DNA of 64,000 bases from Bacteroidales bacterium. Its GTDB lineage: Bacteria; Bacteroidota; Bacteroidia; Bacteroidales; UBA932. The position numbers and the translations under genes are program-made. Shown piece after piece: positions 21,795-57,638 of the stretch. A model generated the notes under the pieces. The model worked only from the letters and a program-made list of their open reading frames with translations, ran no database searches and was not told the origin of the DNA. The DNA is taken from the NCBI GenBank assembly GCA_045114175.1, contig JBGUJZ010000029.1, positions 24,223-88,222 of the forward strand, in the 5' to 3' direction. Every line of letters starts with the position of its first letter. Positions within the stretch are counted from its first letter, which is position 1.

Positions 21795-21812
21795 GGATAT
21801 ATGTTTTAAATG

Positions 21813-23498
21813 TTAGAAAATCAAAGCGATACCACCGCCGAAGTTGAATCCCGGCTCCACATAGAACGGCACATACTGGTTGCGGTGGTTAAAGAGATTG
21901 CCCAGCTTGCCGTAGAGGGTGAAATGGCGGTTCACCACGTAATCTACCGTCAGGCCGAGATTGTGGATCCACGGGGCGTTCCAGGCGCCGAAGGTGCTGC
22001 CGCTGACGGAACTGCGGAAATCGTAGTCGAGCGATCCGATCAGACGCTCCCGCCAGTTGTAGCGGAAATAGAGCCGTCCGGTCGCAGTCGGCAGCTGGGT
22101 GATGGCAGCCCCGCCGGCCATCGGGAAATAGTGGTAGAAGCGCAATTCGCCACCCGTCGTGACAGTGGAAGATTTCCAGAAGGCATCCAGACCGCCCATC
22201 AGCGTGTTGGCATTCAGGAAGCCCAGTTGAATCTCGGCGGGCGCACCAGTGGTATTGATGACCGGTTCAAAGATGGGGCGTCCGCGCTCCATCACGAATC
22301 CGCCGGTCAGGTTCATCGCGAATCGGCCAAAGACCACGCCCTCCAGGGCGAGGGTGACATCCAGCGGGCGGGAACCCATCAGCATCGGGGTATTGGGCGA
22401 AAGCAGCGGCACCTGGGAAGCCAGGAAACCGTAGCCGTTCATATCGAATCCGCCACCGATGATGGTATGGATCCAGAGTGCGCGGCGCACCACCTCAACG
22501 CGGGCATCCACATCGGGGAAGACGCTGCTCAACGCATTCAGGTTGTTGCCGTCCGGCGCCTTGGCCGCCTGGCTTTCCTGCAGGCCGAAGCGGTTGCCGA
22601 ACTTCACGCCAAACCGCCCTTCGAAACGGCCGCTGTTATACTCGTAGATGGGCGAGAAGGCCACCACTGCGGTGGTATAATCCTTGGCGCCCGTATAGCT
22701 GGCAAAGCGCAGCGACATGTCAATGTAAATGCGGTGGATATCAAAGGTCGTACCCACCCAGCCATCCAACGAGAAGGCATTTTCACGCACCCCGAGCCGG
22801 TCCGCCATGGCACTGGTCAGGTAGGTGGAGTTGCCGGCGTCGTATTTGAACTTGAAGTCGTAGTAGAGATTGTTCTCATTTTGAGCCGTGGAGCGCAGGC
22901 CTGCCCGTACGCCCAGGTTGCCGTAACCATTGCTGGCGGTCTGCCCGGCGGAAGCCACGCTGTAGCGGCTGTCATAGTTGTAGATTACGCCCAACCCCGC
23001 TTCACCGGTTGCCCAGACGAACTTCATGTGCGCACTGACGTCGTTGTCCGAGTTGTTCAGGGAGAGGTTTCCTCCGCCCCCGCCCACTTCCGGCACACTG
23101 CCAAAGAAGGAGTTATGGTGGAGCGCCAGGTTGAAGTAGGTGCCGCCCTTGGTAGCCTTCTGCAGATGGAGATCCACCAGCGGCGCTACGGGCATCTGGA
23201 GGCCCAAACGTGCGTAAAACAGCGGCAAACGGATGGGATCCAGCGGTTTGATGCGCAGGGCATCGTAGGGGGTGAACTCGTAGAGGTTGGCGTAGGGTTT
23301 CTCAAAAATGGAATAATCGGTGGTATGTCCGAAACGGGCCAGCGTATCGGAGACCTCGAGCGGCAGCACCGGCTTGTGGATTTCGCCCAGCCGGACATCG
23401 TAGGATCGGCTGACCTCAACCGTCGGGTCGAAGCCCTGCGCGCAGAGCGGGCCGGCGATGGCCAGCAACAGTCCCAGTATCATCATCGCTCTTTTCAT
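21813..23498 (-). CDS. Outer-membrane beta-barrel protein (putative porin), function unknown
   Basis: 561 aa. Signal peptide MKRAMMILGLLLAIAGPLCAQG, alternating aromatic/Gly-rich beta-strand pattern, C-terminal IALIF. ATGA overlap with the upstream TPR gene. Confidence 0.7.
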   Translation of the reverse strand: MKRAMMILGLLLAIAGPLCAQGFDPTVEVSRSYDVRLGEIHKPVLPLEVSDTLARFGHTTDYSIFEKPYANLYEFTPYDALRIKPLDPIRLPLFYARLGLQMPVAPLVDLHLQKATKGGTYFNLALHHNSFFGSVPEVGGGGGNLSLNNSDNDVSAHMKFVWATGEAGLGVIYNYDSRYSVASAGQTASNGYGNLGVRAGLRSTAQNENNLYYDFKFKYDAGNSTYLTSAMADRLGVRENAFSLDGWVGTTFDIHRIYIDMSLRFASYTGAKDYTTAVVAFSPIYEYNSGRFEGRFGVKFGNRFGLQESQAAKAPDGNNLNALSSVFPDVDARVEVVRRALWIHTIIGGGFDMNGYGFLASQVPLLSPNTPMLMGSRPLDVTLALEGVVFGRFAMNLTGGFVMERGRPIFEPVINTTGAPAEIQLGFLNANTLMGGLDAFWKSSTVTTGGELRFYHYFPMAGGAAITQLPTATGRLYFRYNWRERLIGSLDYDFRSSVSGSTFGAWNAPWIHNLGLTVDYVVNRHFTLYGKLGNLFNHRNQYVPFYVEPGFNFGGGIALIF

Positions 23499-26400
23499 CC
23501 CTTCACCTCCTGTTTGATCAGTTTTTCAATGCGGTCGCGGACCTGATCCAGCACATCGTCGTCATCCCCGGTGGGGGTATAGCCGTCGAGCACGCTCCGC
23601 CAGGTAGCCTCCGCCTGTTCTATGTCTTCACGGGCCGCAAACGCATCGCCCAGAATGATAAAACTCTTGGCCAGCCAGTAGAGCTGGGATGTGCCGGAAT
23701 CGGAGAAGGCATAGACGCGGTTCTCCACCTCCACGAAGTCGCCGGCATTGTAGGCATCCAGCACCTGCAGGTAGTTGGCCTCGGCGCCGTAAGCATCCGA
23801 AGCATCGGTAGCCAGGGCCTCCAGCAGCGGTTTGGCCTGCATGCGGTCGCCCTTCACCCGATAGCTCTTGGCCAGCGTGTAACGGGTCTCGCGCTGCGCA
23901 GCCTCGGGCAGGGTTTCATCCTCAAGCAGCATCTGGCCATCCTTGATGGCATCGTCGTATTTCTTGGAGCAGAAGTACGCCCGCATCCGGCCGAGCCGGG
24001 CATTCTGGCGCAGGTGGTCGTTCTCCGTATTGGCTATCAATGCACTGTAGGCCGCAGCGGCACGGCTGTAGCGCTCCAGCTCCATGGAAATCTTGGCATA
24101 AGCAACATTGGCCGCTTCCGTGATCTCTTTGTTGTCCCCGCGCTTCATCACCTTCAGGTAGGCATCCGTCGCGGCCTCCTTGCGGTTGGTGGCGCGCAGC
24201 GATTCGGCCAGCAGGAACCAGGCCTTGGTGGTATAAGGACCATCCGGATAGGTGGCCAGGAAGGACTGCAGGGCCGACATGGCCGAAGTGTGGCGCCCAT
24301 TCTGATGCAGCTGTTCTGCCGATGCAAAGAGCATCTGCTCGCGCTCATCGTCGCTCTTGATGTTGGACATGCCGATTTCATCCAGCCAGGAGAGGAAGAC
24401 CTCCGGCTTGTTCAGGGTCTGATAGATGCTCTCCATACCGGAGATGGCATCCTGGGCCTCCTGCGTACGCGGGCATTCGGAAACCACCGTCTTGTAGTAA
24501 TCGATGGCCTTGTCGAACTTGCCGGCGTTGGAGTTGATCATAGCCAGCTCCAGCAGCGACTTGGCATAGAAGGAGCTGTCTGTCTTCATGCCGAGCAGCG
24601 TATAGAAGCACTCGCTGGCATCCTCATTCTCACCGCGTTGCACATAGGTGCGGCCCAGCTCGAAGAGGGCCTGCGGATAGAGGGTGGCGTTGCGGTGGCG
24701 GCGGATCACACTGCGCAGAATGGCAATCTTCTTGGCATCATTGCCCGTTAGGCCATAGGCCACGGCGCTCTGGTAAGCCGGATAGATATCGCTGGAGGTG
24801 CTGTATTTGGTGTAAACCGATTCATAGGCCCCGGCCGCAGCGGCATAGTTGTTCTGCATGTAATAGGAATCGCCCAACCGGATGCGGGCATCGCGGTCAA
24901 AGAGCTGGGATTCCGGGGTCTCGAGATACTCTGCAAAACGCTTCTGCGCATCCGCGAACTTGCCGGCCTTGAAGTGGCAGTATGCCAGGTTGTAGAGGCT
25001 CAAGCCACCTTGTTGGGTCCGGCGGAAATCCGCACGGTCCAGCAACTGCGAATAGATGTTCGCCGCATCCTGGAAACGGCCGTTGCGATAGAAGCACTCC
25101 GCCATCCAGTAGGAGGCCTGGTTGCCCAGGGCGGCATCGTACTTGGAGTTGGCGAGCGAGGTCTCGAGCATCGGAATGGCGGACCGGTAGGCGCCCGCCT
25201 GAATGTGCTGCATCGCGCGCAGGTAGGAGGCGCGCTGCAGGTTGACCATCGTCTCAGAGTCTTTCTTGCTCACTTTGCCCAGCGCCTCCACGGCCGAACC
25301 GTAATCCTTGGCGCGCAGATAGGAGGCGGCGATATAGTTGTTGATGATATCGTCGCGACCGCTCTTGGGATAGCGCTGCATGTATTGGTCGAACTGCGAA
25401 ATGTCCGCATTGACATCGAAGGAAAGCTTGGCATAGTTGAAGAGCGCATCTTCCTGGATGACAGGATCAAAGTCGAGCGTAGCGGCCGACTGGAACGCGG
25501 TCATCGCGGCAATCTGGTTGCGCTGGTTCAAGTAACAGTTGGCCAGATGGTACCAAGCATTCTGCGAGAGGGAATCCGGCGCGGTAACCACCTTCTCAAA
25601 CGATTCGGCGGCAGCCTTGTAGGACTTGAGGTCGTACGAAAGGATGCCCGAGAAGTAATAGTCCTTGCGGGAGAGCTTCGCGCCCGAGTTGCGGTAAACC
25701 TCCAGGTAGTGGCTCGCCTCCTCGTTTCGGTTCAGCGCGAAGAGCGCCTCGGCCACGATGCGTGCCAGGTTCGGCTTCAGGTCCGCCCCCACTTCATCAA
25801 TGATGGTCGGCCCCACCTCGGCCACATAGGCGTTGTCGCCCCGCATGAACTTGGACTCCACGCAGTAGTAGGTGGACATCACGCGGAAGCGCGAATCGCC
25901 CGCCGCCTGGCGGAAGAGGTCGAAGGCCGCATCAAACTCCTTGTCCATATAGCGGACATAGGCCAGATAGTAGATGCTCGGGTAGGTATAGATGGAGAGC
26001 GGCTCCTTGATGATGCTTTCGTAGCCCTTGGCGGCCTTGTCGTTGTGGCCGGTCCGCATGTCGCAGAAGGAGCGCTTGAATTCGAATTCGGTGCGCCAGT
26101 CACTGTAGAGATAGCGCTTGTTGATGTCCTCAAAGTATTCGTGGGCCTTTTCGTACTCCCCGCGGTCAAAGTAGCGGGAAGCGAGCGCATAGCGGACCAT
26201 CGAGAGCTCGGGGGCGGTGGGATAGTTCAGCGCGAAGACCTTCACCATCCACTCCGCATTCACGCGATCCATGGCGATGGCGCAGAGCACGCGGTAGGCC
26301 TCCAGCTCGGAGCGGCGCAGCGCATAGGTATCGCCGATTGCCACGGCCAGCTCGTTAAACGCCTGTTCCGCAGCCGCATACGCGCCGCTGTTGTAGAGCA

Positions 26401-26518
26401 TGCGCGCCGACTCGAGCCGCTCCCGGAATTCCGCTCCGTCAGGTTCGCCCGCACGGAGGGGCGCTGCTGCCAGCAACAGCAGGAAAAGCGGAAGGAGATA
26501 TCTCTGAAGGCGCTTCAT
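23495..26518 (-). CDS. Large secreted tetratricopeptide-repeat protein
   Basis: I trimmed track ORF 23495..26665 to the ATG at 26518 (MKRLQRYLLPLFLLLLAAAPLRAGE). Many TPR-like A/Y/F-rich 34-aa repeats run through the rest of the ~1007-aa product. Confidence 0.85.
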   Translation of the reverse strand: MKRLQRYLLPLFLLLLAAAPLRAGEPDGAEFRERLESARMLYNSGAYAAAEQAFNELAVAIGDTYALRRSELEAYRVLCAIAMDRVNAEWMVKVFALNYPTAPELSMVRYALASRYFDRGEYEKAHEYFEDINKRYLYSDWRTEFEFKRSFCDMRTGHNDKAAKGYESIIKEPLSIYTYPSIYYLAYVRYMDKEFDAAFDLFRQAAGDSRFRVMSTYYCVESKFMRGDNAYVAEVGPTIIDEVGADLKPNLARIVAEALFALNRNEEASHYLEVYRNSGAKLSRKDYYFSGILSYDLKSYKAAAESFEKVVTAPDSLSQNAWYHLANCYLNQRNQIAAMTAFQSAATLDFDPVIQEDALFNYAKLSFDVNADISQFDQYMQRYPKSGRDDIINNYIAASYLRAKDYGSAVEALGKVSKKDSETMVNLQRASYLRAMQHIQAGAYRSAIPMLETSLANSKYDAALGNQASYWMAECFYRNGRFQDAANIYSQLLDRADFRRTQQGGLSLYNLAYCHFKAGKFADAQKRFAEYLETPESQLFDRDARIRLGDSYYMQNNYAAAAGAYESVYTKYSTSSDIYPAYQSAVAYGLTGNDAKKIAILRSVIRRHRNATLYPQALFELGRTYVQRGENEDASECFYTLLGMKTDSSFYAKSLLELAMINSNAGKFDKAIDYYKTVVSECPRTQEAQDAISGMESIYQTLNKPEVFLSWLDEIGMSNIKSDDEREQMLFASAEQLHQNGRHTSAMSALQSFLATYPDGPYTTKAWFLLAESLRATNRKEAATDAYLKVMKRGDNKEITEAANVAYAKISMELERYSRAAAAYSALIANTENDHLRQNARLGRMRAYFCSKKYDDAIKDGQMLLEDETLPEAAQRETRYTLAKSYRVKGDRMQAKPLLEALATDASDAYGAEANYLQVLDAYNAGDFVEVENRVYAFSDSGTSQLYWLAKSFIILGDAFAAREDIEQAEATWRSVLDGYTPTGDDDDVLDQVRDRIEKLIKQEVKG

Positions 26519-26539
26519 GGTCCGGAATAATCTAAAAAA

Positions 26540-26547
26540 CAAATATA
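26540..26547 (-). promoter_or_regulatory. Candidate -7 box TATATTTG for the TPR/OMP/tpiA transcription unit
   Basis: Perfect TAnnTTTG on the minus strand, 21 nt upstream of the ATG at 26518. Confidence 0.5.
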
Positions 26548-26561
26548 CGAAATTATTTTCG

Positions 26562-26569
26562 TAAATTTG
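26562..26569 (+). promoter_or_regulatory. Candidate -7 box TAAATTTG for ftsE-nth
   Basis: Perfect TAnnTTTG, 19 nt upstream of the ATG at 26589. It sits back-to-back with the minus-strand box. Confidence 0.5.
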
Positions 26570-26588
26570 TGCATCAAACCCGCCGCTT

Positions 26589-27287
26589 ATGGAAAATGCA
26601 AACGCCCCCCAGCCGATTATCGAATTCGAAGAGGTCGATATCTCCAATGGAGAACTGACTGTCATCGAATCGCTTTCCCTTACGGTTCAGGAGGGTGAGT
26701 TCCTCTATATCACCGGCAAAGTGGGCAGCGGCAAGACCTCGATCATCCGCTCGCTAATCGGTGAGAATCCCGTTACGGGCAAACGGGCGGAGGTGGCGGG
26801 ATTCGACCTGCTGCACCTGCGCAAGCGGCAGATTCCCTACCTGCGCCGCGAGATCGGTATCGTCTTCCAGGATTTCCAGCTGCTGATGGACCGCAGCGTG
26901 GAGGAGAACCTCCGGTTCGTGCTGGAGGCCACCGGCTGGCGCAACAAGGCCGCCGTAGATGCCCGCATTGAGGAGGTGCTCCATGCCGTGGGGCTCACCA
27001 ACAAGGCGCACAAAATGCCGCACCAGCTCTCGGGTGGCGAGCAGCAGCGCGTGGCTATTGCCCGAGCGCTCCTCAACCGCCCGCGCATCCTGCTGGCCGA
27101 CGAACCCACCGGCAATCTGGATACCGACACCACCCACAGCATCATGGATCTGCTCTGGTCCATCAATGCCAAAGAGGGCACCGCAGTGCTGATGGTCACC
27201 CATAACCGCACCATTCTCAGCGAGTATCCCAGCAAGGTGCTGGTCTGCGAAGACACGGTCTGCCGCGAGATTTTCCATGAAGAATAA
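26589..27287 (+). CDS. ftsE: Cell-division ABC ATPase FtsE-like
   Basis: 232 aa. Walker A GKVGSGKTS, signature LSGGEQQRVAIARAL, Walker B ILLADEPTGNLD. Size and layout are typical of FtsE. Confidence 0.82.
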   Translation: MENANAPQPIIEFEEVDISNGELTVIESLSLTVQEGEFLYITGKVGSGKTSIIRSLIGENPVTGKRAEVAGFDLLHLRKRQIPYLRREIGIVFQDFQLLMDRSVEENLRFVLEATGWRNKAAVDARIEEVLHAVGLTNKAHKMPHQLSGGEQQRVAIARALLNRPRILLADEPTGNLDTDTTHSIMDLLWSINAKEGTAVLMVTHNRTILSEYPSKVLVCEDTVCREIFHEE

Positions 27288-27909
27288 AAAGTACGCAGCC
27301 ATCCTGGACTGGTTCAGCGAGAACCGGCCCATTGCGGAGAGCGAACTACGCTTTCGCAACCCCTATGAACTGCTGGTCTGCGTAATGCTCTCCGCCCAGT
27401 GCACCGACAAACGGATCAACCTGGTCACCCCTGCCCTCTTCGAGCGGTTTCCTTCGCCTGAATCGATGGCTGAGGCCTCTGTAGAGGAGATTTTGGGTTA
27501 TATCAAATCGGTCTCCTACCCCAACAGCAAAGCCGCGCACCTCAAGGGGATGGCGGAGAAACTGGTGGCGGATTTCGGAGGCTGCGTGCCGGACGACCGG
27601 GAAGCGCTCCAGACCCTGCCTGGCGTGGGACGGAAGACCGCCAACGTGGTCACTTCGGTACTCTGGGATGCACCGGTCATTGCCGTGGATACCCACGTCT
27701 TCCGTGTGGCACGGCGGCTCGGGCTTTCCAAGGGCAAGGATGTTCGCGCAGTGGAAGAAGATTTGACGGCGGGCATCCCGCCGGAGATCCGCCCCAAGGC
27801 GCACCACTGGTTGCTGCTGCACGGCCGCTACATCTGCACCGCCCAGCGGCCCAAATGCACAGAGTGTGGTCTCACACCCTGGTGCGAGACTTTCCGAAAG
27901 GAGAAATAA
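27277..27909 (+). CDS. nth: Endonuclease III
   Basis: 210 aa. HhH-GPD motif LPGVGRKTANVV and C-terminal 4Fe-4S cluster C-x6-C-x2-C-x5-C (CTAQRPKCTECGLTPWC). Confidence 0.93.
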   Translation: MKNKKYAAILDWFSENRPIAESELRFRNPYELLVCVMLSAQCTDKRINLVTPALFERFPSPESMAEASVEEILGYIKSVSYPNSKAAHLKGMAEKLVADFGGCVPDDREALQTLPGVGRKTANVVTSVLWDAPVIAVDTHVFRVARRLGLSKGKDVRAVEEDLTAGIPPEIRPKAHHWLLLHGRYICTAQRPKCTECGLTPWCETFRKEK

Positions 27910-27914
27910 CGGAT

Positions 27915-29207
27915 TTACAGGGCTGCTTTCACCGCGCGCGCCTCATCGGTCAGATTCTGGAAGATGGGCAGGAACTGCTTGAGTTTCAGCTTGCCGTAGA
28001 GCACCTCCGGATGGAACTGGACGCAGAGGATCTTGTCGCCCTCCAGCGCCTCCACCACGCCGTCATCGGCCCGTGCCGTCACTTTGAGGCTGGAGGAGAT
28101 CTTGACCGATGAATAATTATGGCTGGTGTTGACCGTCACCACCGTATCCTTGAGCAGTGCCGCCAACCGGGAATCCTTGTCAATGTGGATGGTGTGGAAA
28201 TAGGTTTCCACGTTGAGACCCAGATTCTCTTTGGTGTCCGGATCAACTGTCTTGTGGGCGACCGTAGAATTCGGATAGGTATCCGTCACCAACAGGGTCG
28301 TGCCACCCAGCACTTTGTTGATGCTTTGATGCCCCTGGCAGATACCCAGCAGCGGTTTGCCGGCGGCAATGGCGGCCCGGATGACTTTGTAATCGTAGGT
28401 GCCGCGACTCGTGGTATCGCCCGAGAAAGAGCCGGGGATAATGATGGCATCCACCTCATCCACATACGCTTTTGCAAGCGCGTCGGTGGTGGTATACTGC
28501 GGAAAGACTTTGCACTTGGCGCCGGCGGCGGCCAGACACCTTATGTAATAGCCATGGGTGGTCTCACCCATTCCCGAGCGGGTAATGCCCACCGTGACAT
28601 CCTTCACGACCGTCGGCGGCGTATCGGGATCCGTTCCGGGATCGGGCTCGGGCACGCCATCGCACCTGACCATCAGCAGCACGAGCGCAAGTAACGCCAG
28701 CGTCTGCTTTGCCTTGCGGGCGAATTCAAATAAAGCCTTCGGGAGATGGCAGTAGCCGGTCGGATTCTTGTCCAGGTAATCCTGGTGGTAATCTTCTGCC
28801 CGATAGAAGTTTTGCAGGGGGAGCTTCTCCACGGCCAGCGGCGCATCGAGCTTCTGCTGCTCAGCGGCAAAAACCTCCTCTATCTGCGGCAGGTCGGCCG
28901 GATCGGTGTAATAGACGCCGGTGCGGTAGCGCGTGCCGGTATCCTCGCCCTGCTTGTTCAGGCTGGTCGGATCGATGGCCTTGAAAAAGAGCTCCAGCAG
29001 GAACTTCAGCGACACCTGGGCCGGATCGTAGGTCACGTGCACCGTCTCCGCATGGCCGGTGGTATCGGTATAGACCTGCTTGTAGGTCGGATTCTCCAGG
29101 TGGCCATTGGCAAAGCCGACTTCGGTGGAGACCACCCCCTGAATCTGCTTCAGGTAATGCTCTGCGCCCCAGAAGCAACCGCCAGCCAGATAGATTTCGC
29201 GCGTCAT
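27915..29207 (-). CDS. msrA: Fusion ORF: MsrA (peptide-Met-S-oxide reductase), a hydrophobic/lipobox-like segment, and a class-I glutamine amidotransferase (peptidase C26, PuuD-like) domain
   Basis: 430 aa. N-terminus MTREIYLAGGCFWGAEHY...GYCHL is a complete MsrA. Next comes RKAKQTLALLALVLLMVRC. The rest carries GICQGHQ and VQFHPE, the GATase Cys/His/Glu triad. There is no stop and no in-frame ATG/GTG/TTG at the junction. Confidence 0.8.
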   Translation of the reverse strand: MTREIYLAGGCFWGAEHYLKQIQGVVSTEVGFANGHLENPTYKQVYTDTTGHAETVHVTYDPAQVSLKFLLELFFKAIDPTSLNKQGEDTGTRYRTGVYYTDPADLPQIEEVFAAEQQKLDAPLAVEKLPLQNFYRAEDYHQDYLDKNPTGYCHLPKALFEFARKAKQTLALLALVLLMVRCDGVPEPDPGTDPDTPPTVVKDVTVGITRSGMGETTHGYYIRCLAAAGAKCKVFPQYTTTDALAKAYVDEVDAIIIPGSFSGDTTSRGTYDYKVIRAAIAAGKPLLGICQGHQSINKVLGGTTLLVTDTYPNSTVAHKTVDPDTKENLGLNVETYFHTIHIDKDSRLAALLKDTVVTVNTSHNYSSVKISSSLKVTARADDGVVEALEGDKILCVQFHPEVLYGKLKLKQFLPIFQNLTDEARAVKAAL

Positions 29208-29210
29208 AGA

Positions 29211-30344
29211 TTAGAGTTTGAAAGGAACCGTGGTATCGTAGTCGTACCAACTGCGCAGGGACAGCGTAAGATTCTGCTGGTCATAGACATTGCTAAACTG
29301 CGTGTCTTCCACCGTGCCGTCCTCCCAGATGAGGTCTTTCCAGTGGACCAGCGCCAGGCACTCCTGCGCCTGTTCAAAGGTCAGCGTGCCATTGTGCTCA
29401 TTCAGGTATGCACCGGCCGTTTCGTAGCGCCACCAGCTGCGGCTGTGCGGGTTGCCGACGGCCGGATCGGGCGTGGTGGTGTAGTATTTGGGCGAAAGGA
29501 GATGGTTGGTCACGAGCATCGCGTTCTCCCCTTCCGGCTTGTTGACAATCATCGTCTTCCAGCCGTCTTCCTTATCAAATTCAATGACAGCCACATCGCC
29601 GTAGGCATCGGCCACCATGTAGTGATAGCCCGAACCGACGGTCGCATCGTGGCAGACGTCGAGCATGGAGAGCAGGTCCAAGGCCTCGGACACCGTAGCG
29701 CAGCGATCCAGGAAGAGGCGCATAATGACAGTCGTGCCCACCTTGTGCAGGCCGCTCTCCTGCTGTGCAGCCTGATGCGGCAGGGCCATGATGGAGGTGC
29801 AGAGTCCCTTCTCGTTGATACCGTCCACCGGCGCATAGATGGCCGCCAGGCAGTTCACCTTTTTCAACAGTTTGGTGGGGAGCTTATCCAGTCCGTAGCC
29901 AAAGTGCGACATATCGCTGACCGAGATGGAGGCATACCCCTTCTTGGGATGGCAAATGGTCACCATGGACGGATTCTTGAAGTAGTCATAGTTGCGGCCG
30001 AACCAGTATCCGCCGCCCTCCGCTTTCGTGGCCTGGAAGCTGGTGCAGTTGAAAACCGTCACGTCCTGGCCTTCCTCTATCACCTGCGCGCTCTTGAGCT
30101 TGATAGGCAGCCCTTTGCCTACGCGTTTCACCACGTAGTCGAGCAATTTGGCGTTGCTGTCAATGTCCTTGGAAATGAGGTCGTCCAGATCGTAGGATGC
30201 CTTGTATTGCATTTGATAGAGATAGGGGTTGTCCCCTACCTGCTTGACCGTGCAGAGCGTGCGGATCTCGCCACCCCAGATGCATGCCACAGCCACGCAA
30301 AGCGCCGCCAGCACGCCAACAATCCAAAGGAGAACTTTCTTCAT
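29211..30344 (-). CDS. Membrane-anchored/secreted Ntn hydrolase, C45 (isopenicillin-N acyltransferase/carcinine hydrolase)-like or choloylglycine-hydrolase-like
   Basis: 377 aa. N-terminal hydrophobic segment MKKVLLWIVGVLAALCVAVAC. Candidate nucleophile Cys100 (VFNC|TSF) is followed by WFGRNYDY, a GRNxD-type motif. Confidence 0.65.
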   Translation of the reverse strand: MKKVLLWIVGVLAALCVAVACIWGGEIRTLCTVKQVGDNPYLYQMQYKASYDLDDLISKDIDSNAKLLDYVVKRVGKGLPIKLKSAQVIEEGQDVTVFNCTSFQATKAEGGGYWFGRNYDYFKNPSMVTICHPKKGYASISVSDMSHFGYGLDKLPTKLLKKVNCLAAIYAPVDGINEKGLCTSIMALPHQAAQQESGLHKVGTTVIMRLFLDRCATVSEALDLLSMLDVCHDATVGSGYHYMVADAYGDVAVIEFDKEDGWKTMIVNKPEGENAMLVTNHLLSPKYYTTTPDPAVGNPHSRSWWRYETAGAYLNEHNGTLTFEQAQECLALVHWKDLIWEDGTVEDTQFSNVYDQQNLTLSLRSWYDYDTTVPFKL

Positions 30345-30406
30345 GGCACTGTTACTATTTGGTTAACAGTGCGAAGATAGAAATTATTTCCGAATGAGCC
30401 CAAAGC

Positions 30407-30441
30407 GTGGCAGGTGGTCCAAATGCTGGACCACCTGCTAC
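30407..30441. repeat. REP-like palindromic element, copy 1
   Basis: GTGGCAGGTGGTCCA-AATGC-TGGACCACCTGCTAC: 12 perfect bp plus 3 further pairs, 5-nt loop. Near-identical to the elements at 35101..35135 and 35151..35185. Lies 5 nt downstream of the stop at 30447, so it may also act as a terminator. Confidence 0.8.
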
Positions 30442-30446
30442 ACTAT

Positions 30447-32921
30447 TTATTTTCCGGCGCCGATTCCGCTTCCGCCACCGGCGCGGGAAGCCTCTTCCAG
30501 TTCGCCGACGTTGCGGCGGCGGGTTGAGCTGGCTTTACCGAAACTCCAGGTAAGACCGACTGTCACCCTCTGCGAGAGGTATTTCTGCTGGAGAACGGAG
30601 ACCACTTTTCCGGTATTGGTATCGAGAATGTCGATATTCTGCTGGCTGGTACGGAAGATGTCCTGGAGTCCTGCATTGAGCGAGAGCGCTCCGTCGAAGA
30701 AGGTCTTGCGGAAGGCAATGTCCGAGGAGAAATTGGGGTGGATTCTGAGATAGGTGTAAACCATCGGCGTCTGCCCGTAAGCGTCCCACTCAATCTTCCA
30801 GTCAGCAGGCAGCGAAAAGGCGAGCGAAGTTTGGAAGAATCCGGAGTAACTACTTTGACTATAGGCGGTTGCGTCAGAGATATTCTGCATCCATACACCG
30901 GTGATAGAAACTGTCCAGTCAAGCCAGGAGGTCACGGGGAGAGCCGTCATGTTGGCGGATAGCCCTGCCTGATAGGTGCGTCCGAAGTTGCCCCACTCAA
31001 GCCGCTGGTTGCCGCTGGCGTCGTATGTAGGAATCTGTGTGGTAACCTGAGTCGAATACTGTCCGTGGGCAGCGAGCGAAAAATGCTGTCCGAAGCCAGC
31101 CTGGAGCCCTACCGAATTGGTAAACTCCGGCAGCAAGTCAGGATTACCCACCGTACTGGTGTGCGCATCTACATACTCCTCTACCGGGTTGAGGCTCCAG
31201 TAGCCGGGACGGTGCACACGACGGGTAAGCGAAAAGGCATAGTTCTGCTTTTCGGTGGGCCGCCAACCCACGAAGATCGTCGGGAACCAGTTCAGGTAGT
31301 GGCGGTGCGTTTCGGTGCCTGCCGTAATCCAGTCACCAAAGGTCCAGGTATATTCGGCTCTCAAACCGGCCTTGACACTCCACTTGGCACCCAGTTGACG
31401 GGCAAAGTTGAAGTAGGCTGCTCCGATATGCTCCAGATAGGTAAAGGAAGTCGTCATATCCATCGGCGAGAGACCTGTTTCAATGCGGCGCGTATCGTTG
31501 GCCGTTGAAGAGCGGGCCCACTTGGCGCCGGCTTCGAACATCGTAGAACCCCACAGAACGCGCTGGTAATCAGCCTTCGCTGAAAGGATGTTCAACACAC
31601 CGTCTCCGACAATCTGTCTGCCCGATTCATCCCAATTGGTAGCGCCTGCCGTCTGGGTCCAGATGTCCTGCTTGTTGTCGGAGAATTGTCCGTTGCGATA
31701 GGCGTCAAGGTTCACGGTAAGTTCCGCACCGCGCGCCTCGTCGAAGATATGCGTATAGTTGAGGTTGGCCGAAATCTGTGTATAACGGGAAGCGTTGGTG
31801 ATGGCAGACTCATCTTTCTGGAGTTCAGTCCCATCCAGCATCAGACGTGAAACGTTTTCGGGACGGCTGCTCTCGGTGCTCTCTGAATGCCAGGGGAGTC
31901 GGACAATGAATCCCAGTGTATTACGCTTGTCAACGAACCAGTCGTTACCCAGGGTGATACGGTTGCTGTAGTATCCGGTCTTATGGAAAGACTGCGAAAG
32001 CTGCTCCATCACTCCGGCCAGTGACTCGGTTTTTGTATCTACATCCAGATCCACATCCCAGCAATAGTCTCCATGGGAGAGATTCAGGAAGGTGTTGGTT
32101 TTATTTGTGCGCCAGGAGAGGTTTGCCCAGTCGTTGTCTTCCCAGGCGAAACGGTTGTGGGAACCAAAATACATTGCGCCGATCTCAGTGCCGATGCTAC
32201 CGTGCAGACCCGAAAGCATATTGCGCTTTGTGCGGATGTTGATGATACCGCCCGAGCCCTCTGCATCATATTTGGAAGAGGGGTGTTCGATGAGTTCAAT
32301 CTTGTCAATACTGCTACCCTCAGTTCCGCGCAGAAAAGCCTGCAGGGCCTTACCGTCCATGTGAGAGGGGCGGCCATCCATCCAGATAGCCACAGACTTT
32401 CCGTTCAGGGTGATATTGCCATCCTTGTCAATCACCACGCCCGGGGCTTTCTTGAGAATATCCAGGCCGTTGGACTGCTGTGCGATGGCGCTCTGGGCTA
32501 CATTCATCACCACCTTGTCAATCTTGACCTCCATAATGGGCGCTTTGGCTGTAATGCGCGCGCTTTCAAGCATCTGGGCGTCCTCTTCCAGCGCGACGGG
32601 CTGAAGCTCTGTACGGGGTGCCTGCACGGTAATGGTGAGGCTGCGGTCGCTATAGCCGATCAGCGAAACGCTGAGGATCCATTCTCCTTCGGGAGCGTTC
32701 AATTTGTAGCGGCCGTTTTCATCGGTGGATGTGCCGCCTATCAGCGTGCTGTCAGCCGCCATCAGGGCTACCGTAGCAAAGCCGAGCGGGGTGCCCGAAA
32801 CTTCCGTGACAGTTCCCTCCACGGGAATTAGAGTCTGCCGTGCGGCGAAGGCCGGCGTATAAGCCGAAGCGGCCGTGAAAAGCGCAAGCGCTGTAATAAA
32901 ATATAGGAGTCGAGTTTTCAT
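30447..32921 (-). CDS. TonB-dependent receptor-like outer-membrane beta-barrel protein (no SusD partner)
   Basis: I trimmed track ORF 30447..32984 to the ATG at 32921 (MKTRLLYFITALALFTAASAYT). Has a CarbopepD_reg-like domain (GTVTEVSGTPLGFATVALMAADSTLIGGTSTDENGRYKL), then plug and barrel. Confidence 0.8.
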   Translation of the reverse strand: MKTRLLYFITALALFTAASAYTPAFAARQTLIPVEGTVTEVSGTPLGFATVALMAADSTLIGGTSTDENGRYKLNAPEGEWILSVSLIGYSDRSLTITVQAPRTELQPVALEEDAQMLESARITAKAPIMEVKIDKVVMNVAQSAIAQQSNGLDILKKAPGVVIDKDGNITLNGKSVAIWMDGRPSHMDGKALQAFLRGTEGSSIDKIELIEHPSSKYDAEGSGGIINIRTKRNMLSGLHGSIGTEIGAMYFGSHNRFAWEDNDWANLSWRTNKTNTFLNLSHGDYCWDVDLDVDTKTESLAGVMEQLSQSFHKTGYYSNRITLGNDWFVDKRNTLGFIVRLPWHSESTESSRPENVSRLMLDGTELQKDESAITNASRYTQISANLNYTHIFDEARGAELTVNLDAYRNGQFSDNKQDIWTQTAGATNWDESGRQIVGDGVLNILSAKADYQRVLWGSTMFEAGAKWARSSTANDTRRIETGLSPMDMTTSFTYLEHIGAAYFNFARQLGAKWSVKAGLRAEYTWTFGDWITAGTETHRHYLNWFPTIFVGWRPTEKQNYAFSLTRRVHRPGYWSLNPVEEYVDAHTSTVGNPDLLPEFTNSVGLQAGFGQHFSLAAHGQYSTQVTTQIPTYDASGNQRLEWGNFGRTYQAGLSANMTALPVTSWLDWTVSITGVWMQNISDATAYSQSSYSGFFQTSLAFSLPADWKIEWDAYGQTPMVYTYLRIHPNFSSDIAFRKTFFDGALSLNAGLQDIFRTSQQNIDILDTNTGKVVSVLQQKYLSQRVTVGLTWSFGKASSTRRRNVGELEEASRAGGGSGIGAGK

Positions 32922-33024
32922 CTTAAAATGTTTTGCGTCCGTTAGACTGATAGCGGCTGCAAAAGGTTGCAAAGATTCGGCCAAGTTTTGCTAAATTCGC
33001 ACAGTTAACCTCACGGAACCGCCC

Positions 33025-34089
33025 TTGAAGATTCGGAAACTGCTCATATTGACGGTCTTTCTCTCCCTGCTGACAAGTTGCGGCGGGGGTGGAGGCGGCA
33101 TTGAGCCGGAAGCGCCGCCTTCGGGTGGCACCAATCCCTGGGATGCCAACCGCGGCAAGGTGGTCACCCCTTCCGGCGACGGATGGACCTCCAAGACCAT
33201 CGACGAGGGCGTGGTCTATTACGCCTATTCCGGGACGGATGCCGCCACGGGCCTGAAGGAAGAGGTTTTTGCCGTGGACCTGGATCTGTCCCGACCGCAG
33301 TATCGGGTGAAACTGCTTTATACGGCACCCCGTGTAACCGTGTCCGAGGCCTTCAAGCGGGATGCCAATACCGTTGCGGCGATGAACGCCAACTACGAGG
33401 TCAGCTCCATCTTCGTCCAGACAGAGGGCATCACCCGCTACCAGATCCCGAAAAATGTAATCGGCAACACGGATGTGCCCAACTGGAAGAGCGAGGCGGC
33501 TTTCACCTCCGACGGCGGGCGGAACCTTTCCATCTTCTTCGCCGGTTCACCCCAGCGCAACGGAAAACTTCCTGACAGCAAAGGGAAAACATATGACGAG
33601 GTCATTTCCCTCCAGCGGAACTATTATGCAAGTATCGCCGCAAGTTGTCCGCACCTGATTTCGAGTGCTCCGATGCTGATTGACGATTTCGAGCCCGTGG
33701 GGGAATCTTTCTGCGATTATACCTTGACCGATGCGCAGGCAAATGCCCTGAACGGGGAAGATCCGAACCGGCATCAGCGTGCGCTGCACCCCCGAACCGC
33801 CATCGCCCTGACGGAGAACAACCACTTCATCATGCTGGTGGTCGACGGCCGTACCAATTACAGCTCTGGAATGTCGGCGCGTGACCTCACCCGTTTTCTG
33901 GTCAAGTATTTCAACCCGCAGTACGCCCTCAATATGGACGGCGGCGGCTCCTCTACGCTGTGCGTCAAAGGGGAAGGCGATCCCGATACGCATGTGGTCA
34001 ACTATCCCTGCGACAATATCCCCGACAAGAACAGCCACGACCACTCCCACGAGCGCGCCCGGGATGTCCATTTCGTAATCTTGAAATAG
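33025..34089 (+). CDS. Lipoprotein, phosphodiester glycosidase (DUF2233/NAGPA-like) family
   Basis: 354 aa. Lipobox LSLLTSCGGGGGG. Motifs AAMNANY and ALNMDGGGSSTL are typical of the family. The ORF begins with TTG, and no in-frame ATG precedes the signal peptide. Confidence 0.72.
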   Translation: MKIRKLLILTVFLSLLTSCGGGGGGIEPEAPPSGGTNPWDANRGKVVTPSGDGWTSKTIDEGVVYYAYSGTDAATGLKEEVFAVDLDLSRPQYRVKLLYTAPRVTVSEAFKRDANTVAAMNANYEVSSIFVQTEGITRYQIPKNVIGNTDVPNWKSEAAFTSDGGRNLSIFFAGSPQRNGKLPDSKGKTYDEVISLQRNYYASIAASCPHLISSAPMLIDDFEPVGESFCDYTLTDAQANALNGEDPNRHQRALHPRTAIALTENNHFIMLVVDGRTNYSSGMSARDLTRFLVKYFNPQYALNMDGGGSSTLCVKGEGDPDTHVVNYPCDNIPDKNSHDHSHERARDVHFVILK

Positions 34090-34092
34090 GGG

Positions 34093-34965
34093 TTAATACC
34101 TGTCCAACAAATCGAATGTCTCCTCGCAGGAGATGCCGCATACCCGGGCTATCTGAACGAGGTTTGACGAAAAGCGGTAGCGCAATTGCCGGAGCAGTTC
34201 TCCCTTCTGGGCGTCGCTCAATTCACTGACGCCGGCGCGATGAAAAGTGGAATAGCACAGGTCCTGGACAGCGGCGCTCAACACCTGATCCCGAAATGCA
34301 GGGATATCCTTTTCACCGAACTCCGACTGACGCTTTGCCTTGGAAGAATTCTGGAGAAAATAGTTCATCCGCTTGGGTGTACGAAATCGTGACTCGACAA
34401 ATGAAACCTGGACATAGGATGCAGGCGAGATGAAGCCATCTGACAGGACCTTATACTTTGACGGGACTTCAAAATGGCTACGCAGTAGTTCACGCCTCGC
34501 TCTGAGAGAGAGACTCCCGACAGGCTCTCCCTTGTCATTAGACGGGTTGAAGAAGACATTGCCGGTCCCCCATGGATAAGCGTTAGCGTTAAGACAGATG
34601 TTGGCTGCCACACTATTCATCTGAACGTATGCGATTGCTCTTTCAAGGGCTTCGTTGCCGAGCGGAATCTCGCGCAAGTCAACATCGTTTCTCCGAAGCA
34701 ACTCTCTGGAGCCATACTTGTGACTGAAATACTGACCGTACAACTTCTTGAATCGAGTGATGAACAGCAGGCACTCTTCATACGTTCCCTGCAAGACAAA
34801 ATGCACGTGGTTGGACATCAGGATAAACGCAATGATAATCGCCCGCGAGGTGGCGGCTACGACGGCAACGTGGTTCATCCCCACTTTATAATCCGAGTCA
34901 TCTCTAAACCAGAGACTGTTCAAAAGATGGGCTGTGGTAACCAGCCAGAATTCCAAACTCTCCAT
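34093..34965 (-). CDS. REP-associated tyrosine transposase (RAYT, IS200-like Y1/HUH) with a C-terminal DnaA-C-like HTH tail
   Basis: HUH motif MSNHVHFVL. Catalytic-Tyr region AIAYVQMNSVAANICLNANAYPWG resembles Y-x2-x-N-P-V...YPWSS of RAYTs. I moved the start from the track's TTG at 35025 to the ATG at 34965 (MESLEF). Confidence 0.75.
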   Translation of the reverse strand: MESLEFWLVTTAHLLNSLWFRDDSDYKVGMNHVAVVAATSRAIIIAFILMSNHVHFVLQGTYEECLLFITRFKKLYGQYFSHKYGSRELLRRNDVDLREIPLGNEALERAIAYVQMNSVAANICLNANAYPWGTGNVFFNPSNDKGEPVGSLSLRARRELLRSHFEVPSKYKVLSDGFISPASYVQVSFVESRFRTPKRMNYFLQNSSKAKRQSEFGEKDIPAFRDQVLSAAVQDLCYSTFHRAGVSELSDAQKGELLRQLRYRFSSNLVQIARVCGISCEETFDLLDRY

Positions 34966-35100
34966 AATCTCTAAACAAACTGGCTGAAAACAAGACCGTC
35001 GCCAATCCTCCAGCCAAATAAACAATCTACATTACTGCGGCGACAGCCCAACAAAGGTAAGAAAAAAAGGTAGCCTTCGGAAAAAATGATAGACGTATGC

Positions 35101-35135
35101 GCCAGGTGGTCCATTCGTTGGACCACCTGCTACAC
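35101..35135. repeat. REP-like palindromic element, copy 2 (same orientation as copy 1)
   Basis: CAGGTGGTCCA-TTCGT-TGGACCACCTG followed by CTACAC, the same 3' flank as copy 1. 11-bp stem, 5-nt loop. Confidence 0.8.
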
Positions 35136-35150
35136 TTTTAGGGGGAAAAC

Positions 35151-35185
35151 GTAGCAGGTGGTCCAGCATTTGGACCACCTGCTAC
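35151..35185. repeat. REP-like palindromic element, copy 3 (inverted relative to copy 1)
   Basis: GTAGCAGGTGGTCCA-GCATT-TGGACCACCTGCTAC: perfect 15-bp stem. Loop GCATT is the reverse complement of copy 1's loop AATGC, and the flanks match copy 1 only when inverted. Confidence 0.85.
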
Positions 35186-35196
35186 GCTGCTAAAAA

Positions 35197-35228
35197 TTTG
35201 GTACGTCCCGAGCGATTTTCTATCTTTG
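35197..35228 (+). promoter_or_regulatory. Bacteroidota-type promoter for tRNA-Ser (-33 TTTG, -7 TATCTTTG)
   Basis: TTTG at 35197..35200 and a perfect TAnnTTTG at 35221..35228, 20 nt apart. The tRNA starts 13 nt downstream. Confidence 0.6.
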
Positions 35229-35240
35229 CCCTCCCAATCC

Positions 35241-35325
35241 GGAAGGTTGGCCGAGTGGTCTATGGCGGCAGTCTTGAAAACTGTTAGTCCGCAAGGGCTC
35301 AGGGGTTCGAATCCCTTACCTTCCG
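35241..35325 (+). tRNA. tRNA-Ser, anticodon UGA
   Basis: Hand-folded cloverleaf: acceptor GGAAGGT/ACCTTCC, anticodon loop CU-UGA-AA, 16-nt variable arm, T-loop TTCGAAT, discriminator G. CCA is not encoded. Confidence 0.9.
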
Positions 35326-35344
35326 CAAATGAAGTACTGAAAGC

Positions 35345-35372
35345 CGCGCGACCCTGTCGCGCGCTTTTTTTT
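35345..35372 (+). terminator. Rho-independent terminator after tRNA-Ser
   Basis: CGCGCGA-CCCTG-TCGCGCG followed by C and T8. Confidence 0.75.
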
Positions 35373-35420
35373 GAGAGTTGAAGCCGCTCGGAAAACTTGC
35401 TTTCCAGACGGCTTCAGTTC

Positions 35421-35443
35421 TCAAAACCCGACCGCAGGTCGGG
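35421..35443 (-). terminator. Rho-independent terminator after lspA
   Basis: On the minus strand, CCCGACC-TGC-GGTCGGG is followed by TTTTGAG, 15 nt after the lspA stop. Confidence 0.55.
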
Positions 35444-35458
35444 CAAATCCCGGAAGGA

Positions 35459-56729: not shown

Positions 56730-57638
56730 ATGAGCGCATACCATATCCCCGTACTACTGGAAGAGAGCATCGAGGCGCTGGCTATCAAGCCGGACGGCGT
56801 CTATGTGGATGCGACTTTCGGCGGCGGCGGACACAGCCGCGCCATCCTCGGGAAACTGGGACCGGCGGGGCGGCTGATTGCCTTTGATAAAGACGCAGAC
56901 GCGCTCGCCAACGCCCCGCAAGACAAGCGGCTCATCCTTGTGCACAACAACTTCCGTTTTGTGCACAATTTTGTGAAATACCATGGCTATCCGCAGGTGG
57001 ACGGCATCCTGGCCGACCTGGGCGTATCGTCGCACCAGTTCGACACAGGCGAGCGGGGATTCTCCTTCCGGTTTGATGCGCCGCTGGATATGCGGATGAA
57101 CCAGGCCGCCGCCCGGACGGCAGCCGACGTGGTGAATGAAGCCGAAGAGGCCGACTTGGAGCGCATCCTCCGCCTCTACGGAGAAGTGGAAAACAGCCGC
57201 CGCGCCGCCGCACTGATTGTCAAGGCCCGCGAAAGCGCGCCGCTGCGCACCACGGGCGATTTGAGCCGGGCCCTGGAGAGCATCCTCCCCAAGCTGGCCG
57301 AGCACAAATACCTGGCAAAGGTCTTCCAGGCCCTGCGCATCGAGGTGAACGGCGAACTGGACGACCTGGAGGGCTTCCTTCAGGGCGCCATCAAGAGCCT
57401 CAAACCCGAGGGACGGATTGCCGTCATCACCTACCACTCGCTGGAAGACCGGCTGGTCAAAAACTATTTCAAGGCGGGAAACGCCTCGGGCGAGATTGTC
57501 CGCGACCTGATGGGCCGGGGCAGCGCGCCGCTCGATAACGTGGAGCGCAAGCCCATCCTTCCCCGGGAGGAGGAGATTGCCGGCAACACCCGCGCCCGCA
57601 GTGCCAAACTCCGCGTCGCCAGACGCGTCAACGCATAA
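56730..57638 (+). CDS. rsmH: 16S rRNA (cytosine1402-N4)-methyltransferase
   Basis: 302 aa. HIPVLLEE, DATFGGGGHS, DLGVSSHQFD and SLEDRLVK. Confidence 0.95.
   Translation: MSAYHIPVLLEESIEALAIKPDGVYVDATFGGGGHSRAILGKLGPAGRLIAFDKDADALANAPQDKRLILVHNNFRFVHNFVKYHGYPQVDGILADLGVSSHQFDTGERGFSFRFDAPLDMRMNQAAARTAADVVNEAEEADLERILRLYGEVENSRRAAALIVKARESAPLRTTGDLSRALESILPKLAEHKYLAKVFQALRIEVNGELDDLEGFLQGAIKSLKPEGRIAVITYHSLEDRLVKNYFKAGNASGEIVRDLMGRGSAPLDNVERKPILPREEEIAGNTRARSAKLRVARRVNA

Follow-up and report, generated by a model that had tools for sequence, protein, structure and literature searches.

Is a solitary Y1 HUH gene, set among small hairpins in the chromosome of a rumen Bacteroidales, the enzyme half of a REPtron? 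The question is raised by a 64,000-nt stretch from a Bacteroidales bacterium (GenBank assembly GCA_045114175.1, contig JBGUJZ010000029.1), here called the window, in which a gene for a 290-amino-acid protein lies beside a doublet of two 35-nt hairpins. Nearly all work on repetitive extragenic palindromic (REP) elements and REP-associated tyrosine transposases (RAYTs) concerns Proteobacteria, in which a minimal enzyme goes with hundreds of repeats, and why genomes retain RAYTs has long been an open question. A sequence-only reading of the window had proposed a RAYT-type Y1 transposase with an inverted, REPIN-like REP doublet next to a tRNA-Ser gene. We conclude that the locus is probably REPtron-like, that is, that it pairs a gene for a RAYT-like Y1 HUH protein, present once and passed on vertically, with its cognate palindromic doublets. 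The reasons are homology and fold, invariant residues, covariation within the hairpins, polar linkage of gene and doublets, dispersal of the doublets, and rearrangement breakpoints at hairpins.

The gene is encoded on the minus strand at 34096..34965, with its stop codon at 34093..34095. The open reading frame (ORF) runs over 34093..35025 if started at a TTG; the ATG at 34965 is taken as the real start because all homologues open with M-x4-[FY]WLVTT at this point. Residues 1-135 (34561..34965, minus strand) constitute the Y1 HUH catalytic core, as judged from Foldseek, NCBIfam NF047646 and the invariant residues, and adopt a beta-alpha-beta-beta-alpha-beta-alpha topology in the AlphaFold2 model, which has a mean predicted confidence (pLDDT) of 86.8 over the whole protein. 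Among PDB structures, the fold is matched best by E. coli TnpA-REP in complex with a REP hairpin (4ER8; E 1.4e-5, TM-score 0.63 on the target, root-mean-square deviation 2.8 Å across 133 columns), and the next are 2XM3, 2A6M, 2F4F and 2EC2 (ISDra2, ISHp608 and IS200 TnpA), all five with a Foldseek probability of 1.00. The HUH and tyrosine motifs that had been picked out by eye, SNHVHFVL and AIAYVQMNSVAANI...YPWG, are indeed present. Across an alignment of 51 homologues the residues concerned are invariant: H53 and H55 of the HUH motif (34801..34809, minus strand), which appears as NHVH, and catalytic Y113 (34627..34629, minus strand) with N117 (34615..34617, minus strand), which appear as Y113-x3-N117.

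Homology to Y1 transposases is carried by the family as a whole. Y1_Tnp matches 51 of 51 aligned members at E<=1 (best 5e-7), distant full-length relatives clear the Pfam cut-off with 25-31 bits, and the NCBIfam REP_Tyr_transpos profile matches the window protein at E 3.1e-7 over profile positions 11-145 of 146. We accept the homology despite the weak scores of the window protein itself, given below, because this family context settles the question, and the possibility that the protein lacks Y1_Tnp homology altogether can be set aside. More than 2144 homologues of about 287 amino acids were found; all named ones are from Bacteroidales, and JGI labels some of them RayT. A profile search of 1.84 billion representatives returned 7873 matches, 279 of them at E<=1e-30; the family comprises more than 2000 clusters at 90 % identity and 279 clusters at 50 % identity at E<=1e-30. 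Our literature search found no paper on this protein family. Upstream of the coding sequence, the metagenomic P0066-like members (L056, L061, L069, L074, L107, L127, L143 and L155) share a conserved leader, gtgagatttgtgttctggagg[at]tt[gc]t, directly before the ATG, and the clade of the window has another conserved leader, ttcagccagtttgtttagagatt.

Two further regions follow the core. A family-specific middle domain (residues 136-215; 34321..34560, minus strand) is strongly conserved, for example in FVE..R..R and SSKA, is modelled with pLDDT 85-96, and has no Pfam match in a scan of the window protein and the 51 homologues. A disordered linker in the AlphaFold model (residues 211-224) then leads to a C-terminal domain of four helices (residues 226-290; 34096..34290, minus strand) at 226-241, 251-265, 269-276 and 280-289, with a helix-turn-helix (HTH)-like motif, QIARVCGIS. 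The sequence-only reading had likened this tail to the C-terminal domain of DnaA. The tail exists and is helical; the DnaA part of the claim found no support and is rejected. Bac_DnaA_C (PF08299) was absent from the Pfam scan of the window protein and had no match at E<=1 in the 51 members, nor at E<=0.1 in 10 distant members; a C-terminal profile run against all PDB sequences recovered no DnaA; a fold search with residues 185-290 gave no match from a poor single-sequence AlphaFold2 model (pLDDT 64); and hhalign against E. coli DnaA domain IV returned a probability of 0.9 %. What remains are weak generic HTH signals (Sigma70_r4_2 at E 0.07; MobC, HTH_26 and MarR in single members), and going by the model the tail is probably a helical, HTH-type domain.

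The doublet lies upstream of the gene. The gene-proximal hairpin, GCGCCAGGTGGTCCA-TTCGT-TGGACCACCTGCTAC (35099..35133), begins 137 nt from the ATG, close to the 135 nt originally estimated, and its outer stem is chimeric and mismatched. It is followed by a 17-nt spacer, ACTTTTAGGGGGAAAAC (35134..35150; GTTTTCCCCCTAAAAGT on the gene-sense strand), which sets the polarity of the doublet, and by the gene-distal hairpin, GTAGCAGGTGGTCCA-GCATT-TGGACCACCTGCTAC (35151..35185), whose stem extends to 35148..35188 and whose feet are GTAG...CTAC. The two hairpins thus lie 17 nt apart and 52 nt from start to start. A spacer of 21 nt, as first reported, fits neither measure, since the 12-mers of the arms are 23 nt apart. 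The reported arms, CAGGTGGTCCA-N5-TGGACCACCTG, are correct at 35103 and 35155 save that the proximal left arm reads CCAGG, not GCAGG, one mismatch to the 12-mer. A third, exact copy had been overlooked: a single hairpin, GTGGCAGGTGGTCCA-AATGC-TGGACCACCTGCTAC, occupies 30407..30441, 5 nt beyond the stop codon of an outer membrane protein (OMP) gene and 62 nt ahead of the start codon of a CBAH gene. The arm motif therefore has three copies in the window (57.3 % G+C), at 30411, 35103 and 35155, where 0.00 are expected in shuffles. Folded as single-stranded DNA, the doublet takes up two separate hairpins as its minimum free energy (MFE) structure (-36.3 kcal/mol, z = -9.1) and does not form one long hairpin. 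An Rfam search at E<=1 returned only the tRNA and no RNA family for the hairpins. Simple terminators were considered and rejected, only the 30407 copy fitting a terminator pattern, on a strand with no gene upstream.

The motif is not confined to these sites. Scans of one genome per GTDB species, with the core motif GGTGGTCCA-N5-TGGACCACC matched exactly, found it in 15 loci of seven rumen Bacteroidales metagenome-assembled genomes (MAGs), along with scattered chance matches in other phyla. None of the 15 loci is orthologous to the window, and tblastn of these 8-kb loci revealed no homologue of the gene nearby. Metagenome contigs were also scanned by hairpin motif, which gave at least 120 loci; the figures that follow hold among the matches listed. 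The doublets are dispersed over the seven MAGs and at least 24 distinct metagenome contexts, typically 20-60 nt beyond ORF 3' ends and often between convergent genes.

The dispersed element is an approximately 87-nt doublet of two 35-nt hairpins with a polar T-run/C-run/T-run spacer. When two to three mismatches are allowed, a second hairpin turns up at a distance of exactly 52 nt for almost all copies. In the metagenome scan 53 of the at least 120 loci have doublets, and the 52-nt distance is kept by 66 of 72 neighbouring hairpins. Apparent singlets with a GGGGTAAAACG tag were considered as a separate class and discarded, for at two to three mismatches nearly all of them prove to be doublets with a degenerated second hairpin. 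The spacer consensus over 71 distinct doublets from relatives and metagenomes, gTTTTaCCCCcttTTTt, is asymmetric, and the doublet is therefore polar. Many copies carry a double foot, 5' GT[AG]G and 3' C[TC]AC, of the REP type described by Quentin et al. 2018; the feet are GTAG or GTGC ... GCAC or CTAC in many, GC[N]G...C[N]GC in others, and many hairpins combine arms of two subtypes, such as GCGCCA...TGCTAC in the window.

The outer stem shows covariation that keeps the hairpins paired. Among 41 distinct hairpins the 8-bp inner stem (GTGGTCCA/TGGACCAC) is invariant or nearly so and the 5-nt loop is free, and the outer 6-7 bp vary yet pair: 93.2 % of cells are paired, compared with 81.2 +/- 1.0 in shuffles, a level that 0 of 500 shuffles reach. 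Both-sided change was seen in 7 of 15 pairs and in 78 cells, against 32.5 +/- 4.3 in shuffles; the 41 copies are related, so these shuffle figures are not probabilities. Slid controls are 25-48 % paired. Compensatory swaps also occur at orthologous sites in different MAGs and species.

How are the two hairpins of a doublet oriented? The sequence-only reading had them inverted, on the strength of loop and flank asymmetry. This argument does not hold: the loops TTCGT and GCATT are unrelated, as loops differ in every copy, the flanks merely extend the palindrome (AAAGTGTAG...CTACACTTT), and the pair aligns about equally well in direct (85 %) and inverted (83 %) orientation in a repeat search. Because the stems extend to perfect palindromes and the loops are unrelated, orientation is not readable from the window. 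In the wider set of 71 doublets, canonical sequence is found in 65 and 58 of the outer arms but in only 51 and 33 of the inner arms. Such mirror symmetry of arm conservation weakly suggests an inverted, REPIN-like pair. Outer stems pair locally in 86.5 % and 81.1 % of cases, compared with 82.7 % and 75.1 % for cross pairing. On one contig (L162, 6901..7285) the 52-nt unit of hairpin and C-run spacer is repeated in tandem at least 7.4 times up to the end of the contig, which has no RAYT-like gene; the array indicates that the unit can amplify head to tail. Together with local pairing and the two-hairpin MFE structure, it argues against the picture of one long hairpin. The REPIN-like label thus stands for a real doublet with a strict 52-nt register, and not for a single long hairpin or for high copy number: the doublet is REPIN-like in organisation, and its orientation can be read either way.

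The gene and the doublets are linked. All close relatives (L030 at 90 % identity, L034 at 75 %, L031-33 at 71 % and L036-38 at 68 %) carry a doublet that precedes the gene by 135-250 nt, usually with a further copy downstream of the gene. The upstream doublets of the window, L030, L031-33, L034-35 and L036-38 have cores of the CAGGTGGTCCA, ATAGTGGTCCA or GGTGGTG-N9-CACCACC type. A clean covariation of hairpin type with protein clade was looked for and is refuted, since L034 carries both the ATAGTGGTCCA and the GGTGGTG-N9-CACCACC types, and the GGTGGTCCA core also accompanies proteins that have only about half of their residues in common (tblastn identities of 48-70 % to the best reference homologue). 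The gene is present in 19 of the at least 120 metagenome loci, which had been picked by hairpin alone, and in 16 of the 53 doublet loci, where doublets flank it directly and commonly on both sides. Chance would not come near such an enrichment for a gene with roughly one copy per genome. Typically one doublet lies 130-190 nt ahead of the gene and another 35-50 nt behind it, with the C-run on the sense strand of the gene in the upstream doublets, and likewise in the downstream ones except in L064. The gene is missing from the remaining 37 doublet loci, of which 12 extend for at least 1.4 kb to either side; together the 37 represent the distinct contexts mentioned above. Around a divergent member (41-48 % identity), L100 and L126 have long G-rich degenerate repeats (ggatggaggcgggg..., gaaggaagggtgattccgg...) in place of the upstream doublet.

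Within each clade the position of the gene is constant. In the clade of the window it sits between IleRS-DksA-LspA-tRNA-Ser and OMP/CBAH, this neighbourhood being conserved across relatives of 68-90 % identity, and a second clade shares flanking genes of its own. No second copy of the gene exists within the 64 kb of the window. Single-copy, vertically inherited genes are the RAYT pattern (Bertels et al. 2017), and the locus, at one site and in one copy as far as the window and the loci of its relatives extend, looks like that pattern rather than that of an insertion sequence (IS). The adjacent tRNA-Ser(TGA) gene (35241..35326, plus strand), correctly noted at the outset, is a clade-specific, incidental neighbour and no part of the system.

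Comparison of close relatives uncovered rearrangements that end at the hairpins. In the window, the single hairpin and the doublet bound a 4.7-kb segment (30442..35150) that holds an OMP_b-brl_3 gene (30447..32984, minus strand; Pfam), a NAGPA phosphodiester glycosidase gene (33025..34089, plus strand; Pfam E 5e-20), the RAYT-like gene and the proximal hairpin. All of these are inverted in L030, with junctions at the single and the distal hairpin. By blastn, L030 385-9813 corresponds to window 21036-30441 (+) and L030 9776-14508 to window 35188-30460 (-), and the 38-nt overlap of the two alignments is the hairpin itself. Nested inversions bounded by doublets are seen in L031, L034 and L036: in L034 the OMP gene alone is inverted, without NAGPA, and L036 equals L034 with the block of gene and OMP inverted and has inverted doublets at both ends. 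In L031 a patatin gene replaces NAGPA. The flanks remain collinear for 9-10 kb on each side. Crossovers inside a hairpin would produce exactly the mixed-subtype arms described above. Inversion of a hairpin-bounded segment between close relatives appears, from these alignments, to be a new observation.

Some further features of this region are recorded here. The cargo between the RAYT-like gene and the OMP gene varies: the window and L030 carry NAGPA there, L031-32 carry patatin, and L034 and L036 have no cargo gene. A 230-nt tRNA-Ser module (35215..35444), made up of promoter, tRNA, a terminator hairpin (35345..35363) and a 26-nt inverted repeat (35369..35426), is inverted relative to L031, L034 and L036, where the tRNA is co-oriented with lspA. 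Three tandem 13-nt units (gtagaagcaagag) mark the 3' end of the OMP gene just before the hairpin in L030 (14525..14575) and are not found in the window; the L030 contig ends within the spacer of the following doublet. Relatives also have a second repeat family of GC-rich hairpins (~TTAGCCCGCCGAAATCCCGGAAGGTCC) between lspA/tRNA-Ser and the RAYT-like gene (L034 9700..9850; L036 13560..13800, twice), of which the window keeps only a 'aaatcccggaagg' remnant at about 35440..35455, beside the lspA stop. Samples that share the same protein share identical arrangements (L031-33, L034-35, L036-38). We considered fast phase variation and rejected it, because arrangements that are constant across samples point to events on an evolutionary scale. 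No Pfam recombinase was detected within +/-10 kb in the annotated relatives.

If the locus is a REPtron-like system, how would it work? Binding, cleavage, mobility and a role of the enzyme in the inversions are what we infer from the comparisons above. The hairpins would extrude on single-stranded DNA, for example on the lagging-strand template, and the N-terminal HUH core would bind them as E. coli TnpA-REP binds REPs. Tyr113, with a metal at H53/H55, could then cleave near the hairpin foot or in the spacer and rejoin the strands, so that doublets would now and then be copied or moved to new intergenic sites. Where two copies are engaged at once, strand exchange may lead to inversions and to hairpins with chimeric arms. 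The middle domain and the helical, HTH-like C-terminal domain probably supply contacts with DNA or with a partner.

Several observations weigh against the REPtron-like reading, in whole or in part. The window protein scores 13.5 bits with Pfam PF01797 (Y1_Tnp), below the cut-off of 23, and 30.4 bits with NF047646, where the curated cut-off is 80. The W[QE] motif listed for RAYT subclasses (class 2, with an FQ variant in subclass 2.1; Table 1 of Quentin et al. 2018, PMC6006769) has no tryptophan here: its position in strand beta4 is an invariant L90-R91 in the 51 homologues. Because the curated Y1_Tnp and REP_Tyr_transpos thresholds are missed and the W motif is absent, the window protein is a RAYT-like relative and not a canonical RAYT; the designation of RAYT-type transposase first proposed holds as far as fold, invariant residues and doublet linkage go. 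Copy number is low, with a few doublets per genome rather than hundreds: no MAG has more than seven hairpins at four loci by exact match. The tens to hundreds of copies of a REPIN population, with a master sequence and a cloud of mutants, were not found in these genomes, where loops all differ and outer stems are diverged. In the window and in every gene-bearing 20-kb locus, all copies stay within about 5 kb of the gene. The loci of the most distant homologues have different structures or none recognisable: L041 has other upstream hairpins with a similar ~51-nt repeat and a GCTTTCACCCCC motif, and L039 has no recognisable hairpin structure near the homologue. Orthologous doublets persist across species, and no presence/absence polymorphism of doublets was seen among the orthologous sites compared, so that recent transposition is unsupported. 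Finally, an inversion at an unrelated locus (L006 compared with L020) has only one of its breakpoints at a doublet, and inversions between palindromic repeats of 35-90 nt could arise without this enzyme, by ordinary recombination or template switching.

This last point is the substance of an alternative to which we give about an even chance: that linkage of gene and doublets is as proposed, and that the inversions are independent of the enzyme and come about by RecA-dependent or template-switch recombination between palindromes. Any two copies of a palindrome are mutual inverted repeats, the invariant core and spacer offer 35-90 nt of identity, arrangements are stable within a lineage across samples with no fast switching, and the single-ended inversion just described is in keeping with such an origin. 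It is harder to reconcile with five lineages that each have their own 5-kb arrangement between flanks collinear over 9-10 kb, which is many events for 35-nt repeats, and with chimeric arms that put the crossovers inside the hairpin. At the other extreme, the RAYT-like enzyme might be an HUH-type DNA invertase, or shuffler, of gene cassettes lying between two doublets, one that would cut and rejoin single strands at both doublets and so invert or reorder its own gene, an OMP beta-barrel gene and whichever cargo is present (NAGPA, patatin or none). We know of no such role described for a Y1 HUH protein, and we consider it quite unlikely.

Could the whole unit of doublet, gene and doublet (~1.25 kb) instead be an autonomous IS200/IS605-type insertion sequence, with solitary doublets as its footprints or as derivatives resembling miniature inverted-repeat transposable elements? 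The layout is compact on many contigs, the two doublets usually have one polarity like the ends of IS608, ISDra2 and ISHp608 TnpA are also among the structural matches of the Y1 fold, and in L036 the gene and its doublet lie across the OMP gene from their place in the window. Set against this, the chromosomal site is constant across relatives of 68-90 % identity and in a second clade with shared flanks, there is one copy per window and contig with neither paralogue nor tnpB, the left and right ends do not differ but are one and the same element, lone doublets are about twice as frequent as gene-linked ones among the matches listed, and the local relocation in L036 is explained by two nested inversions. 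Multiple near-identical copies with distinct left-end and right-end hairpins were not found in the loci examined, and an insertion sequence is very unlikely. Another idea would make the hairpins host elements independent of the gene, whether bidirectional terminators, mRNA-stabilising stem-loops or protein-binding palindromes, and the protein a domesticated, non-cutting regulator whose C-terminal HTH would act on the palindrome ahead of its own gene. The siting of dispersed copies just beyond 3' ends, the terminator-like score of the 30407 copy, the upkeep of stems by compensatory change at orthologous sites, the resemblance of GGTGGTCCA-N5-TGGACCACC to a dimeric operator and the conserved helical C-terminal domain all suit it. 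Invariant HUH and tyrosine residues in 51 homologues, and distant relatives that clear Y1_Tnp, would be unexpected in a pure DNA binder; symmetric outer-stem variation within one genome speaks for base pairing and not for half-site recognition; a strict 52-nt polar doublet on both sides of the gene is not terminator-like; and most copies have no T-run on at least one strand. We therefore hold this explanation to be unlikely, and retain the REPtron-like reading.

Which of the known systems does the locus resemble? The E. coli system of TnpA-REP and its REP, BIME (bacterial interspersed mosaic element) and REPIN repeats (Nunvar 2010; Bertels and Rainey 2011; Ton-Hoang 2012; Messing 2012, PDB 4ER8) shares with it the Y1 HUH fold, the HUH and Y-x3-N motifs, a gene that appears to occur once, at a fixed place, among palindromic elements of its own, and paired, intergenic elements near gene 3' ends with GTAG at many feet. 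Unlike the 165-residue TnpA-REP, the protein has 290 residues with extra middle and C-terminal domains, no W[QE] motif and a score below the curated RAYT model. Unlike E. coli REPs, the hairpins are perfect or near-perfect palindromes with an invariant inner stem, a strict 52-nt register and a C-run spacer, and the doublets that flank the gene are mostly of one polarity, not inverted, and few where E. coli has hundreds. The IS200/IS605 elements IS608 and ISDra2 likewise have the Y1 HUH fold, subterminal hairpins that share one polarity on either side of the gene and, presumably in common with the present system, strand-specific chemistry on single-stranded DNA; they differ from a syntenic gene with no sign of multiple identical copies, no tnpB, identical ends and lone hairpin elements.

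Systems of this kind had been thought much less documented in Bacteroidota, which undervalues the record. REPtrons of Bacteroidetes have been described (Quentin et al. 2018, PMC6006769): subclass 2.4 has double-foot GT[AG]G...C[TC]AC REPs, and subclass 2.6 has atypical structures. Subclass 2.4, compared here by description only, shares the phylum, an NH[IFV]H HUH motif and long hairpins with GT[AG]G and C[TC]AC feet; the window hairpin at 35151..35185 satisfies the double-foot definition of 5' GT[AG]G and 3' C[TC]AC. Its proteins of ~194 amino acids have WQ, YIxNNP and often intragenic REPs, whereas the family described here has no W motif, YVQMN[SCP], a 155-residue C-terminal extension and no intragenic REP. 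In subclass 2.1 the same authors list NHVH, Y[IV]xLNP and C-terminal Bac_DnaA_C or HTH-like domains, and found no REPs near the gene. The repeats of TIRtrons have GGGGWSAS in common, and dimeric, self-complementary forms occur among them (Di Nocera et al. 2013, PMC3733652). With subclass 2.1, Bertels group 1 and the TIRYT/TIRtron elements, our family has in common NHVH, Y[IV]xxN, a long C-terminal HTH-like extension and self-complementary dimeric repeats of moderate to low copy number; the G-run beside the repeat, GGGGG[TA]AAAAC, is only a partial match to GGGGWSAS. Unlike in subclass 2.1, hairpin doublets flank the gene, and the Bac_DnaA_C, HTH_23 and HTH_28 models have no match. The family thus combines double-foot hairpins, a G-run, a long C-terminal extension, the lack of a W motif and a strict 52-nt doublet.

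Two other palindromes of the window were noted in passing. A near-perfect 32-nt palindrome, ACAAATATACGAAATTATTTTCGTAAATTTGT (26539..26570), lies between a TPR-protein gene (minus strand) and a divergent ABC_tran gene (plus strand), is kept at the equivalent place in L030, L031, L034 and L036-38, and is probably an operator for divergent promoters. A hairpin scan also reported an unrelated palindrome at 56938..56968 (TTGTGCACAA-N11-TTGTGCACAA-like, with an 11-bp stem and a 7-nt loop). In several GTDB loci (L001, L005, L007, L018, L022 and L025) doublets lie 160-700 nt from contig ends, which may reflect assembly breaks caused by the repeats or structural heterogeneity nearby.

What would a REPtron-like system of this kind mean for Bacteroidales? 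The family is large, and joins a Y1 HUH core with two extra conserved domains to a cognate, strictly spaced, low-copy doublet. In the published scheme, long C-terminal extensions of the HTH type mark subclasses without REPs; the present family breaks that rule, which makes it a good test case for the role of the extra domains. The doublets are likely a cause of contig breaks and structural variation in rumen MAGs. The coincidence of breakpoints with hairpins, together with the mixed arms, provides a concrete, testable link between a RAYT-like enzyme and genome rearrangement. Should the enzyme after all prove to act as an invertase, the hairpin-bounded region would be a recombination module that diversifies the arrangement of surface-protein genes in rumen Bacteroidales.

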